Part shown: positions 1 through 10,353 of the stretch, in pieces
How positions within the stretch are numbered: the stretch's first letter is position 1
How the letters are laid out: each line of letters begins with the position of its first letter
From: a virus
Lineage: Duplodnaviria; Heunggongvirae; Uroviricota; Caudoviricetes
DNA length: 13,638 nucleotides
Reading direction: 5' to 3' (one strand)
Virus record (IMG/VR): IMGVR_UViG_2531839476_000010
The notes under the pieces: model-generated
The model's database searches: none
Told to the model about the DNA's origin: nothing
What the model saw: only the letters and a program-made list of their open reading frames with translations
Translations under genes and position numbers: made by a program

Positions 1-47
1 GGCTCATTTAAACCGTCTGGTCTGTTTCCTCCGGCTCTACAAAAATA

Positions 48-725
48 ATGTCCATCATTTTTAATGGACACTATCGTATGAAACACCGGACCTGGATCAC
101 TGAAGCTTTACGTCTTCACTTTGAAGAACATTTACCCCGGGTTGTGGCCGGGCGTCGCCTGGGTGTACCAAAATCAACAGTTTGTAGTATGTTCGTGCGC
201 TTTCGGAGAGCTGGCCTTTCGTGGCCTTTGCCCGCAGGCATGTCGGAGCAGGAACTTGATGCCTGCCTTTACGGACAATTTTCCACGGTACCAGTCGTAC
301 GTCCTGAAAGCACCGTTATATCCGAAGCCCCCGTGGTAAAAAAACGTCCCCGGCGGCCCAACTTCCCTTATGAGTTTAAAATCGCCTTAGTGGAGCAGTC
401 ACTGCAGCCCGGAGCCTGTGTGGCGCAGATCGCCCGGGAAAACGGAATCAACGATAACCTGCTCTTCAACTGGCGCCATCAATACCGGAAAGGTGGCCTG
501 CTGCCTTCCGGAAAAAATATGCCGGCACTGCTTCCCGTGACGTTAACGCCGGAGCCGGATAATAAAATCCCGGCCCCCGCACAGGAACCAGAGCAGATAA
601 ATACACCGTCCGACAGTCTGTGTTGTGAGCTGGTTCTGCCGGCCGGAACTCTCAGGCTTAAAGGTAAACTGACGCCGGCGTTATTACAGACACTTATCCG
701 CGAAATAAAAGGGAGCAGCCACTGA
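48..725 (+). CDS. tnpA: IS66-family accessory protein (orf1/TnpA-like), start codon uncertain
   Basis: C-terminal ~130 aa (PNFPYEFKIALVEQSLQPGACVAQIARENGINDNLLFNWRHQYRKGG...) resembles IS66 orf1 HTH proteins. At 225 aa the ORF is longer than the ~130-150 aa I expect, so the true start may be an internal Met (e.g. 79) or the N-terminal part is an extra HTH domain. Stop overlaps the orf2 start by 1 nt (TGATG). Confidence 0.65.
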   Translation: MSIIFNGHYRMKHRTWITEALRLHFEEHLPRVVAGRRLGVPKSTVCSMFVRFRRAGLSWPLPAGMSEQELDACLYGQFSTVPVVRPESTVISEAPVVKKRPRRPNFPYEFKIALVEQSLQPGACVAQIARENGINDNLLFNWRHQYRKGGLLPSGKNMPALLPVTLTPEPDNKIPAPAQEPEQINTPSDSLCCELVLPAGTLRLKGKLTPALLQTLIREIKGSSH

Positions 726-1072
726 TGATATCTCTCCCTGCAGGTTCGCGTATCTGGCTGGTTGCAGGTATCACCGATATGCGAAATGGCTTTAACGGCC
801 TGGCATCAAAAGTTCAGAACGTCCTGAAGGATGACCCGTTCTCCGGACACCTGTTCATCTTCCGCGGACGCCGGGGTGACCAGATAAAAGTGTTGTGGGC
901 TGACAGTGACGGACTGTGCCTCTTCACCAAACGCCTGGAGCGGGGCCGCTTCGTCTGGCCAGTCACCCGTGACGGCAAGGTGCACCTTACTCCGGCTCAG
1001 TTATCCATGCTTCTTGAAGGTATCAACTGGAAGCACCCGAAACGAACGGAACGCGCTGGAATCCGCATATAA
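725..1072 (+). CDS. tnpB: IS66-family TnpB (orf2) accessory protein
   Basis: 115 aa; translation MISLPAGSRIWLVAGITDMRNGFNGLA...LFIFRGRRGDQIKVLWADSDGLCLFTKRLERGRFVWP matches the conserved IS66 Orf2 family as I recall it; position and size fit. Confidence 0.9.
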   Translation: MISLPAGSRIWLVAGITDMRNGFNGLASKVQNVLKDDPFSGHLFIFRGRRGDQIKVLWADSDGLCLFTKRLERGRFVWPVTRDGKVHLTPAQLSMLLEGINWKHPKRTERAGIRI

Positions 1073-1091
1073 CCCGTTGTAAAGTGAGGAT

Positions 1092-2663
1092 ATGGACACC
1101 TCACTTGCTCATGAGAACGCCCGCCTGCGGGCACTGTTGCAGACGCAACAGGACACCATCCGCCAGATGGCTGAATACAACCGCCTGCTCTCACAGCGGG
1201 TGGCGGCTTATGCTTCCGAAATCAACCGGCTGAAGGCGCTGGTTGCGAAACTGCAACGTATGCAGTTCGGTAAAAGCTCAGAAGAACTTCGTGCAAAAAC
1301 CGAACGGCAGATACAGGAAGCACAGGAGCGAATCAGCGCACTTCAGGAAGAAATGGCGGAAACGCTGGGTGAGCAATATGACCCGGTACTGCCATCCGCC
1401 CTGCGCCAGTCTTCAGCCCGTAAACCGTTACCGGCCTCACTTCCCCGTGAAACCCGGGTTATCCGGCCGGAAGAGGAATGCTGTCCTGCCTGTGGTGGTG
1501 AACTCAGTTCTCTGGGATGTGATGTGTCAGAGCAACTGGAGCTTATCAGCAGCGCCTTTAAGGTTATCGAAACACAACGTCCGAAACAGGCCTGTTGCCG
1601 GTGCGACCATATCGTGCAGGCACCAGTACCTTCAAAACCCATTGCACGCAGTTATGCCGGAGCGGGGCTTCTGGCCCATGTTGTCACCGGGAAATATGCA
1701 GACCATCTGCCGTTATACCGCCAGTCAGAAATATACCGTCGTCAGGGAGTGGAGCTGAGCCGTGCCACACTGGGGCGCTGGACAGGTGCTGTTGCTGAAC
1801 TGCTGGAGCCGCTGTATGACGTCCTGCGCCAGTATGTGCTGATGCCCGGTAAAGTCCATGCTGATGATATCCCCGTCCCGGTCCAGGAGCCGGGCAGCGG
1901 TAAAACCCGGACAGCCCGGCTGTGGGTCTACGTCCGTGATGACCGTAACGCCGGTTCACAGATGCCCCCGGCGGTCTGGTTCGCGTACAGTCCGGACCGG
2001 AAAGGTATCCATCCACAAAATCACCTGGCCGGTTACAGCGGTGTGCTTCAGGCCGATGCTTACGGTGGTTACCGGGCGTTATACGAATCCGGCAGAATAA
2101 CGGAAGTCGCGTGTATGGCTCATGCCCGGAGAAAAATCCACGATGTGCATGCAAGAGCGCCCACCTACATCACCACGGAAGCCCTGCAGCGTATCGGTGA
2201 ACTGTATGCCATCGAGGCAGAGGTCCGGGGCTGTTCAGCAGAACAGCGTCTGGCGGCAAGAAAAGCCAGAGCCGCGCCACTGATGCAGTCACTGTATGAC
2301 TGGATACAGCAACAGATGAAAACACTGTCGCGTCACTCAGATACGTCAAAAGCGTTCGCATACCTGCTGAAACAGTGGGATGCACTGAACGTGTACTGCA
2401 GTAATGGCTGGGTGGAAATCGACAACAACATCGCAGGGAACGCCTTACGGGGAGTGGCCGTAGGCCGGAAAAACTGGATGTTCGCGGGTTCCGACAGCGG
2501 TGGTGAACATGCGGCGGTGTTGTACTCGCTGATCGGCACATGCCGTCTGAACAATGTGGAGCCAGAAAAGTGGCTGCGTTACGTCATTGAACATATCCAG
2601 GACTGGCCGGCAAACCGGGTACGCGATCTGTTGCCCTGGAAAGTTGATCTGAGCTCTCAGTAA
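1092..2663 (+). CDS. tnpC: IS66-family transposase (orf3/TnpC)
   Basis: 523 aa; N-terminal coiled-coil/leucine-zipper-like region, CxxC...CxxC zinc-finger-like motif (CPACGG...CCRCDH), then the transposase core, as typical of IS66 transposases. RBS GTGAGGA upstream of the ATG. Confidence 0.9.
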
Positions 2664-2669
2664 ATATCA

Positions 2670-2693
2670 ATACGGTTCTGACGAGTCGCTTAC
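2670..2693. repeat. Putative IS66 right terminal inverted repeat (ATACGGTTCTGACGAGTCGCTTAC)
   Basis: Ends in ...GCTTAC, reverse complement GTAAGC..., 30 bp after the tnpC stop. Partner IRL not in window. Confidence 0.5.
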
Positions 2694-2735
2694 ACTCAAC
2701 GGGATAATTAGGGCTTTTTTTACGCACTGCGGTTA

Positions 2736-3140
2736 ATGATTTCATGGATAGCGTCCACCATATTTGGTGTCCACTATTCTCTCAGGAATTTCAGGATCTG
2801 CCAGACGGTGCTGAGACGACGCTTACGGATAAATAATTACCCGGATAAGATTACTGTTACTGTGGCACTGGAAATTGGTGGGTATCCGTCACTGTTGTTG
2901 CCATATGTGGCGATTAGTCTTGACCGTACTGAAGGTGCCACGCTGGAGTTTTACGAAGCTGAGGCGAAAAAGCAGGCGAAGCAGTTTTTCATGGATGTTG
3001 CTGCCGGGTTATGTGAAGGGGATGGTCCGTTGCCGGAAAAGCGGCCCATCATTTTAGAGGCGCAGGATGTGTTGATAACCTACAGAGGAAAACTACCGGG
3101 AATAATTACTGGTTCTCTGAAGACTCCACCGCTGGCCTGA
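2736..3140 (+). CDS. Hypothetical protein; possibly a C-terminal fragment of a gene disrupted by the IS insertion
   Basis: 134-aa ORF from the track. Its first ~30 codons overlap the second IS-end-like sequence, so the native gene, if any, likely begins downstream or was truncated. No family recognised; not holin-like (no transmembrane segments). Confidence 0.3.
   Translation: MISWIASTIFGVHYSLRNFRICQTVLRRRLRINNYPDKITVTVALEIGGYPSLLLPYVAISLDRTEGATLEFYEAEAKKQAKQFFMDVAAGLCEGDGPLPEKRPIILEAQDVLITYRGKLPGIITGSLKTPPLA
2803..2826. repeat. Second IS66-end-like sequence (AGACGGTGCTGAGACGACGCTTAC), direct copy 133 bp downstream of the first
   Basis: 17 of 24 positions identical to 2670-2693 when aligned by eye, including the terminal CGCTTAC. 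Could be the true IRR or a solo-end remnant of another IS66 copy. Confidence 0.4.
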
Positions 3141-3190: not shown

Positions 3191-3724
3191 ATGAACGCAA
3201 AAATCAGATACGGCCTGTCGGCTGCCGTTCTGGCGCTGATTGCCGCAGGTGCGCCTGCGCCTGAAATCCTCGACCAGTTTCTGGATGAAAAGGAAGGTAA
3301 CCACACCACGGCATACCGTGATGGCGCGGGTATCTGGACCATCTGTCGCGGTGCCATTCTGGTGGATAGTAAACCTGTCGTCCCGGGCATGAAGTTGTCG
3401 AAGGAGAAATGCGACCAGGTTAACGCCATTGAACGTGATAAGGCGCTGGCATGGGTGGATAAAAACATCAAAGTGCCACTGACCGAACCCCAGAAAGCGG
3501 GGATCGCGTCATTCTGTCCGTACAACATTGGTCCCGGTAAATGTTTCCCGTCGACGTTTTACAGACGAATTAATGCAGGTGATCGCAGGGGAGCGTGTGA
3601 GGCGATTCGCTGGTGGATTAAGGACGGTGGCAGAGACTGCCGTATTCGCTCAAATAACTGTTACGGTCAGGTATCCCGTCGCGACCAGGAGAGTGCGCTG
3701 GCGTGCTGGGGAATTGACAGATAA
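3191..3724 (+). CDS. R: Phage endolysin, T4-lysozyme-type (GH24) with N-terminal signal-anchor-release (SAR) segment
   Basis: 177 aa. N-terminal Ala/Gly-rich weakly hydrophobic stretch (YGLSAAVLALIAAGAPAP) followed by a Glu-x8-Asp-x5-Thr catalytic arrangement (KEGNHTTAYRDGAGIWTICRG). Closely resembles the R lysozymes of 933W/21-type lambdoid phages as I remember them. Confidence 0.9.
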   Translation: MNAKIRYGLSAAVLALIAAGAPAPEILDQFLDEKEGNHTTAYRDGAGIWTICRGAILVDSKPVVPGMKLSKEKCDQVNAIERDKALAWVDKNIKVPLTEPQKAGIASFCPYNIGPGKCFPSTFYRRINAGDRRGACEAIRWWIKDGGRDCRIRSNNCYGQVSRRDQESALACWGIDR

Positions 3725-3813: not shown

Positions 3814-3850
3814 AAAACCCCCATTTGTTGGCTGCAAGCGGGGTTTTGTG
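3814..3850 (+). terminator. Hairpin with flanking A- and T-tracts downstream of R (possible intrinsic terminator)
   Basis: AAAACCCC(C) at 3814-3822 pairs with GGGGTTTT at 3840-3847, followed by GTGTTT. The loop is long (~17 nt), so terminator function is uncertain. Confidence 0.35.
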
Positions 3851-3883
3851 TTTCCTGACTCCGGAAAAGTCAAAGGAGAAAGT

Positions 3884-4021
3884 GTGTTTGATTTTAGCAA
3901 ACTGATTCGGGAGATTCGAGTGATGGCTGAAAAATTATCCACCTGGAAGTTCATCCTTATCTGGCTGGTGTTTGTGATTATGGCCTCCGGTTATTTCATC
4001 GGTCAGATACGCTGGTGGTGA
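3884..4021 (+). CDS. Small hypothetical single-pass membrane protein, translationally coupled to Rz
   Basis: Below the ORF-track length cutoff; found by reading the frame. GTG at 3884 preceded by AGGAG (3874-3878, 5-nt spacing); alternative ATG at 3923. Encodes ...MAEKLSTWKFILIWLVFVIMASGYFIGQIRWW with one hydrophobic helix. Stop TGA at 4019-4021 sits 1 nt before the Rz ATG. Confidence 0.3.
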   Translation: MFDFSKLIREIRVMAEKLSTWKFILIWLVFVIMASGYFIGQIRWW

Positions 4022-4022
4022 A

Positions 4023-4517
4023 ATGAACCGCGTACTGTGCGTGGTCATCATTGCCCTGCTGGTGGCCTGTGGTGCGCTTAGTCTGGGGCTGAATCATTAC
4101 CGTGATAACGCCATAACCTACAAAGAGCAGCGCGATAAAAAAGTCAGTGAGCTGGAGCTGGCAAATGCAACCATTACTGATATGCAGCAGCGCCAGCGTG
4201 ATGTTGCTGCACTTGATGCCAGATACTCGAGGGAATTAGCCGATGCGAGAGCTGAAAATGAAACTCTTCGCGCTGACGTTGCCGCTGGTCACCGCAGCCT
4301 GCGGATCAACGCCACCTGTCCAGGTCCCGTGCGTGAAGCCACCGGCACCGCCCGCGTGGATAATGCAACCGGCCCCCAACTGGCAGACACCGTTACACGG
4401 GATTATTTCACCCTCAGAGAGCGGCTGATGACGATGCAGAAGCAACTGGAAGGGGCACAGGACTATATCCGCACTCAGTGTACTAAGCAGGCTTTTTATT
4501 ATCCGGAGGATGTATGA
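4023..4517 (+). CDS. Rz: Rz i-spanin (inner-membrane spanin subunit)
   Basis: 164 aa; N-terminal TM helix then ...NHYRDNAITYKEQRDKK...DMQQRQRDVAALDARYSRELADARAENETLRADVAAG...RDYFTLRERLMTMQKQLEG, near-collinear with lambda Rz as I recall it. Confidence 0.92.
   Translation: MNRVLCVVIIALLVACGALSLGLNHYRDNAITYKEQRDKKVSELELANATITDMQQRQRDVAALDARYSRELADARAENETLRADVAAGHRSLRINATCPGPVREATGTARVDNATGPQLADTVTRDYFTLRERLMTMQKQLEGAQDYIRTQCTKQAFYYPEDV
4243..4428 (+). CDS. Rz1: Rz1 o-spanin (outer-membrane lipoprotein) embedded in the +1 frame of Rz
   Basis: 61 aa; lipoprotein signal with lipobox (LVTAA|C), proline-rich mature part ...CVKPPAPPAWIMQPAPNWQTPLHGIISPSE matching lambda Rz1 (CVKPPPPPAWIMQPPPDWQTPLNGIISPSE). 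Classic embedded-gene architecture. Confidence 0.88.
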   Translation: MRELKMKLFALTLPLVTAACGSTPPVQVPCVKPPAPPAWIMQPAPNWQTPLHGIISPSESG

Positions 4518-4738
4518 AGAAATTGCAGGTAACGGTAAAACCTTTTCAGGGAACAATTCCGTTCCGTGTTTTGCAACATGGCCGTGTTCTGCTTGAAGAG
4601 GTGTTCAGAGGTAAATGCACTGAATGTTATTCACGAACATATGAAGTGAATGCCACGCATGAAGAATTCACCGTTGAGTGTGTGATGAATACTGATAAAT
4701 GCCGAATGGTATCCGCTGAATTACAGCCAGTGTGTTGA
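4514..4738 (+). CDS. Hypothetical small Cys-rich protein, translationally coupled to Rz
   Basis: 74 aa; ATG overlaps the Rz stop (ATGA at 4514-4517); GGAGG 4 nt upstream. Contains CxxC (CTEC) and a further Cys pair (ECVMNTDKC); no signal peptide. AT-richer than flanking phage genes. No family recognised. Confidence 0.5.
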   Translation: MKKLQVTVKPFQGTIPFRVLQHGRVLLEEVFRGKCTECYSRTYEVNATHEEFTVECVMNTDKCRMVSAELQPVC

Positions 4739-5045
4739 GCGACCTTATTATCCATGCGCGGTATTGTCGCCGTATTCCTGCATTAACAGAGACCGCAGCC
4801 CGACAGGGAGACTCCTCTGCGAGAGTGTGCGGGGATAATCAAAAACGATACACACCGGGGTTTACCGCGTAAACGGAGCGCGGCGTTGTCCCCTCATGGT
4901 CGCTGGTCCGGTGCGATGGTGGAAGAAACCGGACGATGTGTTACCTCGCAAACTCTGTTATGTCATGTGTCTGATTTGTGATTTAAGTCGGATAATTGTC
5001 ATTGCCATTAAGCAGAGGATTGATGACCGACAGGGCTGCATTGTT

Positions 5046-5062: not shown

Positions 5063-5082
5063 TATCTATGCCGGGAATAAAA

Positions 5083-5409
5083 ATGAAAAGAAATCTTCCG
5101 TTAATTATTTTGTTGTCTTCTTTGGTTATGGGCTGTACGCAACATAAAACAGATATGCCTCGACAGTTGGTTAAGGCATTACCACAATATCCGGCCTATG
5201 CCGCGGCAAATTATATAAAGGGACGGGTTGATGTGAAGTTTGATATTGGTGCTGATGGTACTGTCACCCGAATTGAGTTTATCCGTTCAGAGCCGCACCA
5301 TCTGTTTGATGAGCAGGTTGTAAAGGCGATGGCAAAATGGCGATTTGAGAAGGACAAGCCGCGTAAAGGCGTGAAGAAAACATTTATCTTTAGTCCTTCA
5401 GCACCCTGA
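5083..5409 (+). CDS. Lipoprotein with TonB C-terminal-like domain (moron gene)
   Basis: Start taken at the second ATG (5083), giving signal MKRNLPLIILLSSLVMG|C with Cys+1 and Thr+2. Mature region QYPAYAAANYIKGRVDVKFDIGADGTVTRIEFIRSEP...VVKAMAKWRFE aligns by eye with E. coli TonB C-terminal domain (QYPARAQALRIEGQVKVKFDV.PDGRV...AMRRWRY). No TonB N-terminal anchor or Pro-rich spacer. AT-rich relative to the head genes. Confidence 0.7.
   Translation: MKRNLPLIILLSSLVMGCTQHKTDMPRQLVKALPQYPAYAAANYIKGRVDVKFDIGADGTVTRIEFIRSEPHHLFDEQVVKAMAKWRFEKDKPRKGVKKTFIFSPSAP

Positions 5410-6628: not shown

Positions 6629-6654
<26 letters not shown>
6109..6654 (+). CDS. nu1: Terminase small subunit (gpNu1)
   Basis: 181 aa; MEVNKKQLADIFGASIRTIQNWQEQGMPVLRGGGKGNEVLYDSAAVIKWYAERD... 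matches lambda Nu1 along its length (winged-HTH N-terminus); overlaps the A start by 26 nt as in lambda. Confidence 0.95.

Positions 6655-10333
<3,679 letters not shown>

Positions 10334-10353
<20 letters not shown>

Follow-up and report, generated by a model that had tools for sequence, protein, structure and literature searches.

A small accessory gene of the Rz-to-terminase slot in lambdoid prophages, predicted to encode a stand-alone beta-sandwich protein

What is the small open reading frame (ORF) that begins on the stop codon of the spanin gene Rz in a lambdoid prophage, and does it belong to the lysis machinery or travel behind it as cargo? The stretch that raises this question is IMG/VR virus record IMGVR_UViG_2531839476_000010, a lambdoid prophage segment of 13,638 nucleotides (nt) which we refer to in its entirety as the window. 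Our best reading, held with slightly more confidence than doubt and drawn from comparative sequence analysis and a structural model, is that the frame (hereafter the ORF) is a real accessory gene whose product would be a soluble, late-operon beta-sandwich binding protein, possibly acting in counter-defence. The ORF and its putative ribosome-binding site lie as follows.

4514-4738, + strand: ORF of 74 amino acids (aa) with an ATG start (from the ORF list), a member of family phrog_2571, predicted to be a soluble 8.6-kDa all-beta sandwich
4505-4509, + strand: Shine-Dalgarno sequence GGAGG, 4 nt before the ATG (from the sequence)

Conservation of the reading frame and its junction with Rz

The window contains 107 ORFs of at least 40 aa, and thus the ORF by itself lies within chance expectation; its conservation, however, is beyond chance. 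We gathered 91 homologous loci from genomes and IMG/VR, representing 25 distinct DNA alleles, and the reading frame was intact in every one of them. The sole length variant among these loci is an in-frame deletion of 9 nt (locus L005), and proteins of the P0009 type, which came from the protein search, carry an in-frame deletion of five codons. One identical protein is encoded by nine DNA alleles, and variable sites are distributed 20/14/36 over codon positions 1/2/3. For comparisons among the three main clades, the ratio of nonsynonymous to synonymous substitution rates (dN/dS, Nei-Gojobori) lies at 0.27-0.43 (Fisher p from 0.02 to 6e-5), as against values above 1 in the two other frames of the ORF, which hold 5-9 stops. 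These comparisons bear out the proposal of an earlier, sequence-only reading of this DNA that the ORF codes for protein.

The ORF is also widely distributed. At megablast sensitivity its DNA occurs in at least 700 of 5,426 complete E. coli genomes (775 places, labelled 'hypothetical protein' by PGAP), and a more sensitive search places it in at most about 1,260 genomes, an upper bound in that the query held some Rz sequence. Among 50,697 phage records, tblastn returned 26, comprising Shiga toxin (Stx)-converting phages, H-19B and a few other coliphages; the ORF is carried by Stx1a-, Stx2a- and Stx2c-converting phages and stands at the end of the H-19B record. Lambda is not among the 26, in agreement with the earlier statement that it has no equivalent here. 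A profile search of 1.84 billion representative proteins gave 43 matches at E<=1e-3, most of them stand-alone proteins of roughly 70-80 aa with the same motif pattern. Conservation confined to this locus had been named as grounds for abandoning the gene; instead, some of the profile matches are homologues at about 30% identity, with named sources that include Xenorhabdus and Yersinia prophages.

It could still be argued that the ORF is not functional, being either a chance frame or a by-product of conservation acting on a DNA- or RNA-level element, and the adjoining 190-bp non-coding segment does provide an example of strong conservation without coding in the same region. This explanation is already contradicted by the evolutionary signature, namely the third-position bias, a dN/dS below 1 in the ORF frame only and the restriction of insertions and deletions to in-frame events, as well as by protein homologues at 30% identity in other genera and by a confident predicted fold. 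We consider it scarcely credible, and on the evidence of sequence comparison the ORF is almost certainly a protein-coding gene under purifying selection.

The manner in which the ORF adjoins Rz proved to be less constant than the ORF itself. Two further features are needed here.

4023-4517, + strand: Rz (i-spanin; Pfam PF03245 Phage_lysis, E=9.9e-48; phrog_13)
4488-4517, + strand: allele-specific 9-codon 3' extension of Rz (QAFYYPEDV plus stop), from the junction census of 78 loci and alignment A3

In the window the Rz stop codon TGA (4515-4517) overlaps the ATG (4514-4516) of the 74-aa ORF, giving the ATGA overlap that the sequence-only reading had reported. Among the 78 loci in which this junction could be scored, 50 have Rz ending in '...IRTQCIN' at a TAG that lies 23 nt before the ATG. 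In the other 28, the window included, this TAG is replaced (by CAG at 4488-4490 in the window) and Rz reads through to the TGA. The resulting extension runs through the leader and Shine-Dalgarno sequence of the ORF, and the Pfam Rz domain stops at residue 153 of the 164 in the window protein. The overlap thus exists because the Rz stop codon was lost; judged from the junction alleles, it is a derived, allele-specific trait and not a defining feature of the ORF family. Translational coupling through the overlap, as originally proposed, is therefore tenable for this copy and the 27 others like it, but not as a general property. The Shine-Dalgarno sequence was correctly noted, as were the other sequence-level features in the earlier reading, if with a short spacer; in the upstream sequences of the 91 loci it is kept in the E. 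coli types (GGAG in the majority allele) and reads GGGGG in a Salmonella prophage.

A crude consensus scan found no promoter-like site between Rz and the ORF and a single terminator-like site, a weak 5-bp stem inside the ORF, a count below shuffle expectation. Since the ORF is the last cistron on the same strand and no promoter-like site follows Rz, transcription with the late operon is the natural inference. Late co-expression with the lysis genes, another element of the earlier proposal, gains from this arrangement in general terms and becomes doubtful for the present copy, which carries an IS66-family insertion and frameshifts described below.

Protein family, predicted fold and cysteines

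The only family matched by the ORF product is phrog_2571 (PHROGs v4, 'unknown function'; E=1.2e-28, 101 bits), with residues 1-73 aligning to positions 100-172 of the 291 in the profile, and the distant relatives match these same positions. No match was found in Pfam, NCBIfam or PADLOC, nor to any lysis PHROG or lysis Pfam family. The profile has 291 columns because it was built on a 280-aa protein, P0046 of phage PhiR46_1, which has three parts; its middle domain is the equivalent of the 74-aa ORF. Searches of PDB by sequence gave no match for the family profile, for this 280-aa relative or for the partner protein phrog_4280 discussed below. The ORF product is identical to RefSeq WP_000736096.1, and WP_000735655.1 is a further family entry; both are named 'hypothetical protein'. 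In an alignment of 17 sequences from E. coli, Salmonella, Yersinia, Xenorhabdus and metagenomes (A4), residues M1, V6, F17, Q21, G33-K34, Y43, V45 and A68 are common across genera, in stand-alone proteins of 70-81 aa. The closest known counterparts, phrog_2571, WP_000736096.1 and gp60 of phage mEp237, share the length, motif pattern and post-Rz position of the ORF, although gp60 differs from the window protein in having no cysteine and in being followed by a partner, gp61.

The domain also occurs in fused form. In P0032 (181 aa) its fusion partner is the C-terminal extension found in phrog_2091, and the DUF1327/YdfR protein of the window matches the N-terminal portion of that family; in P0044 (225 aa) it follows a weak Phage_Tail_Tip-like region. 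A 602-aa multicystatin (P0036), which carries the cystatin motif QVVAG, and two very long repeat proteins also scored against the profile; all three were judged to be repeat-inflated chance matches.

An AlphaFold2 model built from a 15-sequence alignment (pLDDT 88.6, pTM 0.74) contains seven beta-strands and one short helix, so that the ORF product is confidently predicted to be a stand-alone seven-strand beta-sandwich. Foldseek returned nothing significant (E>=0.3 against PDB, >=0.08 against viral models). What likeness there is, to CBM6/35/36, the hemocyanin C-terminal domain, PNGase F and a lambda J domain, is one of fold class only, at 6-16% identity, and resemblance to such beta-sandwich and jelly-roll binding modules is no evidence that the ORF product binds carbohydrate. 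The protein begins with MKKLQVTVKPFQGT and, as the sequence-only reading had stated, has no signal peptide; it also lacks a transmembrane (TM) segment, signal anchor or lipobox, its maximum Kyte-Doolittle mean over 15 residues being 0.64.

That reading had further seen, in a CxxC motif and additional cysteines, a possible zinc-ribbon-like fold, which would make the product a small, Cys-coordinated protein binding nucleic acid or protein through a zinc knuckle. The window allele does have cysteines at residues 35 and 38 (the CxxC), 56, 63 and 74, and the Salmonella allele retains C35, C38 and C56 while losing C63 and C74. The motif, however, is present only here and in a few other alleles: where the window reads CTECY, the commonest E. 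coli allele reads CTQLH, without the second cysteine, and others read CTKLF, CTQSY or CTESY. Even closely related alleles of E. coli and Salmonella disagree at C38, C63 and C74, none of the five positions is consistently kept in the Xenorhabdus, Yersinia and mEp237 relatives, and no cysteine column is conserved in A4. A zinc ribbon has four conserved metal ligands in two CxxC or CxxH knuckles; the ORF product offers one CxxC, has no zinc-ribbon Pfam match at E<=1 and is confidently modelled as a beta-sandwich in place of two zinc knuckles or a three-stranded ribbon. The lack of cysteine conservation together with the predicted fold led us to discard the zinc ribbon, to which we would attach hardly any probability; going by alignment and model, the cysteines are very probably incidental.

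Accessory behaviour, partner gene and possible function

Several observations indicate that the ORF occupies a site of variable gene content. In a prophage of strain EDL933 an Rz end of 90-94% identity is followed by the shared downstream segment without the ORF in between, and in the complete E. coli genomes the ORF is found in 775 places as against 4,552 for the downstream segment. The base composition of the ORF is deviant (42.2% GC, 37.3% at third codon positions) compared with 54.7% for Rz and 57.9% for the segment just downstream. Thus, the AT-rich composition and moron-like character ascribed to the ORF from its sequence are both upheld. The proposed order of Rz, ORF, lipoprotein and cos fared less well, in that only the Rz-ORF adjacency is kept: a TonB-C lipoprotein gene comes next in about 20 of the 91 loci, and elsewhere the neighbours are ylcI/HNH/terS, DUF1398 or Nu1. 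The DLP12 prophage of K-12 carries borD, ybcV, ybcW and ylcI at this site, all of them unrelated to the ORF; YbcW, at 68 aa, was checked individually and proved unrelated. Distant relatives lie upstream of the holin gene in Xenorhabdus, beside an Ail/Lom gene and a BamE-like gene on a metagenomic contig and, in Yersinia, in an early region near ParDE and a protein kinase gene.

In slot, presence or absence and AT-rich composition the ORF resembles the lambdoid morons (bor of lambda; borD, ybcV, ybcW and ylcI of DLP12), to which it has no sequence relation. Classic morons such as bor are independent transcription units expressed from the prophage (PMC3594210). The ORF, unlike these, lies on the strand of the late operon, and the crude consensus scan detected neither a promoter nor a terminator belonging to it. 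Its presence or absence between like flanks and the varied cargo positions point to a mobile accessory gene in a recombination hot-spot, not to a core lysis component, and we regard it as probably a dispensable accessory gene rather than a lysis effector. The ORF is already catalogued, as phrog_2571 and as a RefSeq hypothetical protein, and it is a small accessory gene of the Rz-to-terminase slot.

Outside the Stx-type lineage the family gene usually has a partner: in many loci, a gene of about 70 aa follows it on the same strand at a distance of 39-75 nt. Its product has the pattern MFV..GLK.DPDN.GWVLGW.VVR..PWHLVGVYATK...YGSHR.GSDDF. and belongs to phrog_4280 (E=2.6e-38; unknown function), and one UniRef name describes a relative as a DUF2188 protein. 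The partner is carried by mEp237 (gp60/gp61), by a prophage of Salmonella, by E. coli SBF22, by two species of Xenorhabdus and by five contigs that represent four other distinct metagenomic contexts, at the following places in the loci that were compared.

L011 5265-5471; L102 3307-3522; L101 3001-3222 (mEp237 gp61): phrog_4280 partner
L010 1736-1951; L097 2325-2540; also in L095, L096, L099 and L100: phrog_4280 partner

Both genes occur together in about 35 E. coli genomes, and tblastn found no trace of the partner in the window or in any Stx-type locus. The partner family is the wider of the two, extending to Pseudomonas (phages and genomes), Serratia and Vreelandella, often without the ORF. 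By ancestry the ORF was probably the first gene of a two-gene cassette with a DUF2188-like partner of about 70 aa, and the Stx-type lineage, to which the window belongs, has probably lost the partner while keeping the ORF under purifying selection. Between the window clade and the common clade, both of them partnerless, dN/dS is 0.32, from which it follows that the ORF evidently functions without the partner.

How might such a gene act? We propose that the ORF would be read, as the last cistron of the lysis cassette, from the late transcript by way of its own GGAG(G) Shine-Dalgarno sequence; in the ATGA-overlap allele only, ribosomes ending on the Rz stop could also re-initiate at the ORF. It would be gained and lost as a unit in the hypervariable Rz-to-terminase cargo slot. 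Its product, an 8.6-kDa soluble cytoplasmic protein equivalent to the core domain of phrog_2571, may be a small module that binds a protein or ligand of host or phage origin and acts in conflict between phage and host or among phages, and would not belong to the lysis machinery. Two distant contexts are suggestive in this respect. In one Xenorhabdus locus (L010, 3699-3941) the gene overlapping the Rz stop encodes an Acb2/Tad1-hairpin protein (44.5 bits, gathering cutoff 27), in a position equivalent to that of the ORF. In another (L097, 1153-1935) a protein that is Tad2-like (44 bits, cutoff 25) and also of the DUF7823 kind is encoded directly upstream of the family member. The signal sponges Acb2/Tad1 and Tad2 are, like the ORF product, small soluble phage accessory proteins, and it is these neighbours, an association in two loci only, together with the soluble cytoplasmic character of the product, that incline us towards a small conflict-type binding module. 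As a side observation, the clusters in L010 and L097 both adjoin a PixA gene.

A counter-defence type of role for the ORF product is, nevertheless, a tentative suggestion and less likely than not, and a number of points weigh against it and the wider reading of which it forms part. The link to host takeover or exclusion drawn in the sequence-only reading is likewise speculative. The searches of PADLOC, Pfam, NCBIfam and, by sequence, PDB gave no match, and the product has no structural or sequence similarity to Acb2, Tad1 or Tad2 (PF24729/PF11195). Counter-defence proteins are usually made early, whereas the ORF stands at the very end of the late operon. The scan revealed no promoter of its own and, in the window, an IS66-family insertion cuts it off from the late promoter side. 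Only two contexts, both distant, have anti-defence neighbours. Furthermore, in E. coli, Salmonella and mEp237 the ORF always lies directly after Rz, which would also fit a role linked to lysis.

This last point deserves particular consideration, as the ORF could instead be an accessory or regulator of the lysis cassette that tunes when lysis occurs, how spanin or holin works or how endolysin is released, and that is for this reason retained as the last cistron of the S-R-Rz operon. Consistent with this are the adjacency to Rz, without exception in the E. coli, Salmonella and mEp237 loci examined, the placing of a Xenorhabdus relative about 475 nt upstream of a holin gene and that of the 280-aa PhiR46_1 family member, likewise between Rz and Nu1; so is the fusion in P0032, given that phrog_2091 also matches the window's YdfR/DUF1327, another lysis-cassette accessory protein. 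Holin, spanin and SAR-endolysin control operate in or across the membrane, however, and the ORF product, being soluble and devoid of TM segment, signal peptide, lipobox or other export signal, would be poorly placed to take a direct part in holin, endolysin or spanin action. The ORF is absent from prophages with a closely similar Rz, such as that of EDL933, the Yersinia relative resides in an early region far from lysis genes, and the slot between Rz and terminase is a general cargo site. We therefore judge a lysis-accessory role unlikely, yet one that keeps real weight on account of the strict Rz adjacency and of the module shared, through the P0032 fusion, with an extended YdfR-family protein. 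A different objection is that the partnerless ORF of the Stx-type lineage may be a functionless remnant linked to Rz, the orphaned half of a module, for example toxin/antidote-like or sensor/effector, that works only when phrog_4280 is there too. Conservation of the gene pair across genera at a spacing of 39-75 nt and the absence of the partner from the window and all Stx-type loci would accord with that. Partnerless alleles that differ by 17% in nucleotides nevertheless show a dN/dS of 0.32, some 80 partnerless copies are free of frameshifts and stops, and the far wider spread of the partner family, often without the ORF, shows that the two genes are not obligately linked; nor does PADLOC match either protein. 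An orphaned remnant is thus an improbable account.

Our preference accordingly stays with a soluble accessory protein of the late operon that acts as a binding module. It is tempting to speculate further that the phrog_2571 beta-sandwich, alone or with phrog_4280, constitutes a new family of counter-defence or host-modulating proteins, though we think this quite unlikely. If it were true, such a family would sit in the cargo slot of about one-fifth of complete E. coli genomes, Stx phages included, and its members would work either by taking an immune signal out of circulation or by attaching to a host defence or envelope protein and blocking it. What our analysis adds to the catalogue entries is the evidence of purifying selection, the confident prediction of a stand-alone beta-sandwich without a characterised relative, the finding that the ORF is one half of a two-gene cassette conserved in other lineages and its place in the cargo slot of Shiga-toxin phages. 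As many Stx1a, Stx2a and Stx2c phages carry the ORF, any role that it had in evading defence, in exclusion or in lysis with toxin release would bear on how these phages spread. At the same time, it is one among many uncharacterised small phage accessory genes, and represents a reasonable, not an outstanding, candidate for anti-defence or exclusion screens.

Surroundings of the gene in this prophage

The window contains, in order, an IS66-family element, a truncated ydfR, the lysozyme gene, a small membrane ORF, Rz/Rz1, the ORF, a TonB-C lipoprotein gene, the Nu1/A terminase genes and head genes. The features not yet given are these.

3191-3724: lysozyme
4243-4428, + strand: Rz1 (o-spanin lipoprotein), nested in Rz in the +1 frame, from the ORF list; sequence MKLFALTLPLVTAACGS... 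with a lipobox
4739-4935 (core 4754-4928), no strand: conserved, unannotated non-coding segment of about 180-195 bp directly after the ORF
5068-5409: TonB-C-domain lipoprotein (lipobox LVMGC; PF03544, E=2.7e-15)

We take 4243-4428 to be Rz1 by analogy with Rz/Rz1 of lambda, and not from a family search. The small ORF at 3848-4021, which ends 1 nt before the Rz start, encodes a single-TM protein of phrog_6632 (unknown function); a shorter version is a RefSeq hypothetical protein in related prophages, and many relatives have an antirepressor gene inserted in the interval from lysozyme to the small ORF of this type. The lipoprotein gene at 5068-5409 is itself AT-rich (43% GC) and is carried by only some related prophages; the PHROGs label of its family, phrog_1267, is 'Rz-like spanin', which looks wrong. 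Its product could be that of a candidate cargo gene interfering with TonB-dependent uptake or phage entry.

The IS66-family element (window 1-2826) has three ORFs, at 48-725, 725-1072 and 1092-2663, and is inserted 31 nt into ydfR (DUF1327). Homology to intact prophages restarts only at 2827, and hence the element parts R, Rz and the ORF from the holin gene and the late promoter side, neither of which is included in the window. When set against an intact relative, the gene for the terminase large subunit lacks single bases near 8279 and 8346 and is thereby split into 6629-8290 and 8331-8552; in gene W, one extra base at 8743 joins W to the beginning of the portal gene, itself split into 8549-9160 and 9094-10353. 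Judging by these lesions, either the prophage is defective or the frameshifts are sequencing errors. It is the insertion and the frameshifted head genes that make late co-expression of the ORF doubtful in this prophage; the identical ORF allele is present in apparently intact Stx phages, Stx2_EH1846 (LC567840) being an example.

The segment directly downstream of the ORF is much more conserved than the ORF and is present also where the ORF is absent. It occurs in 4,552 copies in 1,911 of the 5,426 complete E. coli genomes, with up to nine per genome and mostly at 95-99% identity, and in 139 phage records, and it occupies the place that the partner gene takes in other lineages. It bears no coding signature: its variable sites are spread 8/16/12 over the codon positions, and several copies contain in-frame stops. 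Likewise, there was no Rfam match, no excess stability (fold-energy z-score -0.24) and no compensatory pairs. Candidate roles for the segment are those of a 3' end or processing site of an RNA, of a small RNA, or of a linker at which modules recombine. A literature search gave nothing relevant on 17-20-mers of the segment, nor on the WP accessions, phrog_2571 or mEp237 gp60/gp61. A preprint on the Pas small RNAs (10.64898/2026.05.13.724894) locates PasA, PasC and PasD beside the holin/lysozyme operon and PasB inside the operon of structural genes, and describes no Pas small RNA after Rz.

One annotated gene does lie on this segment: orf48 of VT2-Sakai (NP_050547.1; L093 2479-2739; phrog_6954), labelled 'Rz-like spanin', the window equivalent of which is 4732-4872. 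Its frame is cut by a TAA in the window and by other stops in other copies. We considered orf48 as a coding partner of the ORF and rejected it, given the lack of codon-position bias and the in-frame stops; from its sequence, it is probably a mis-annotation.

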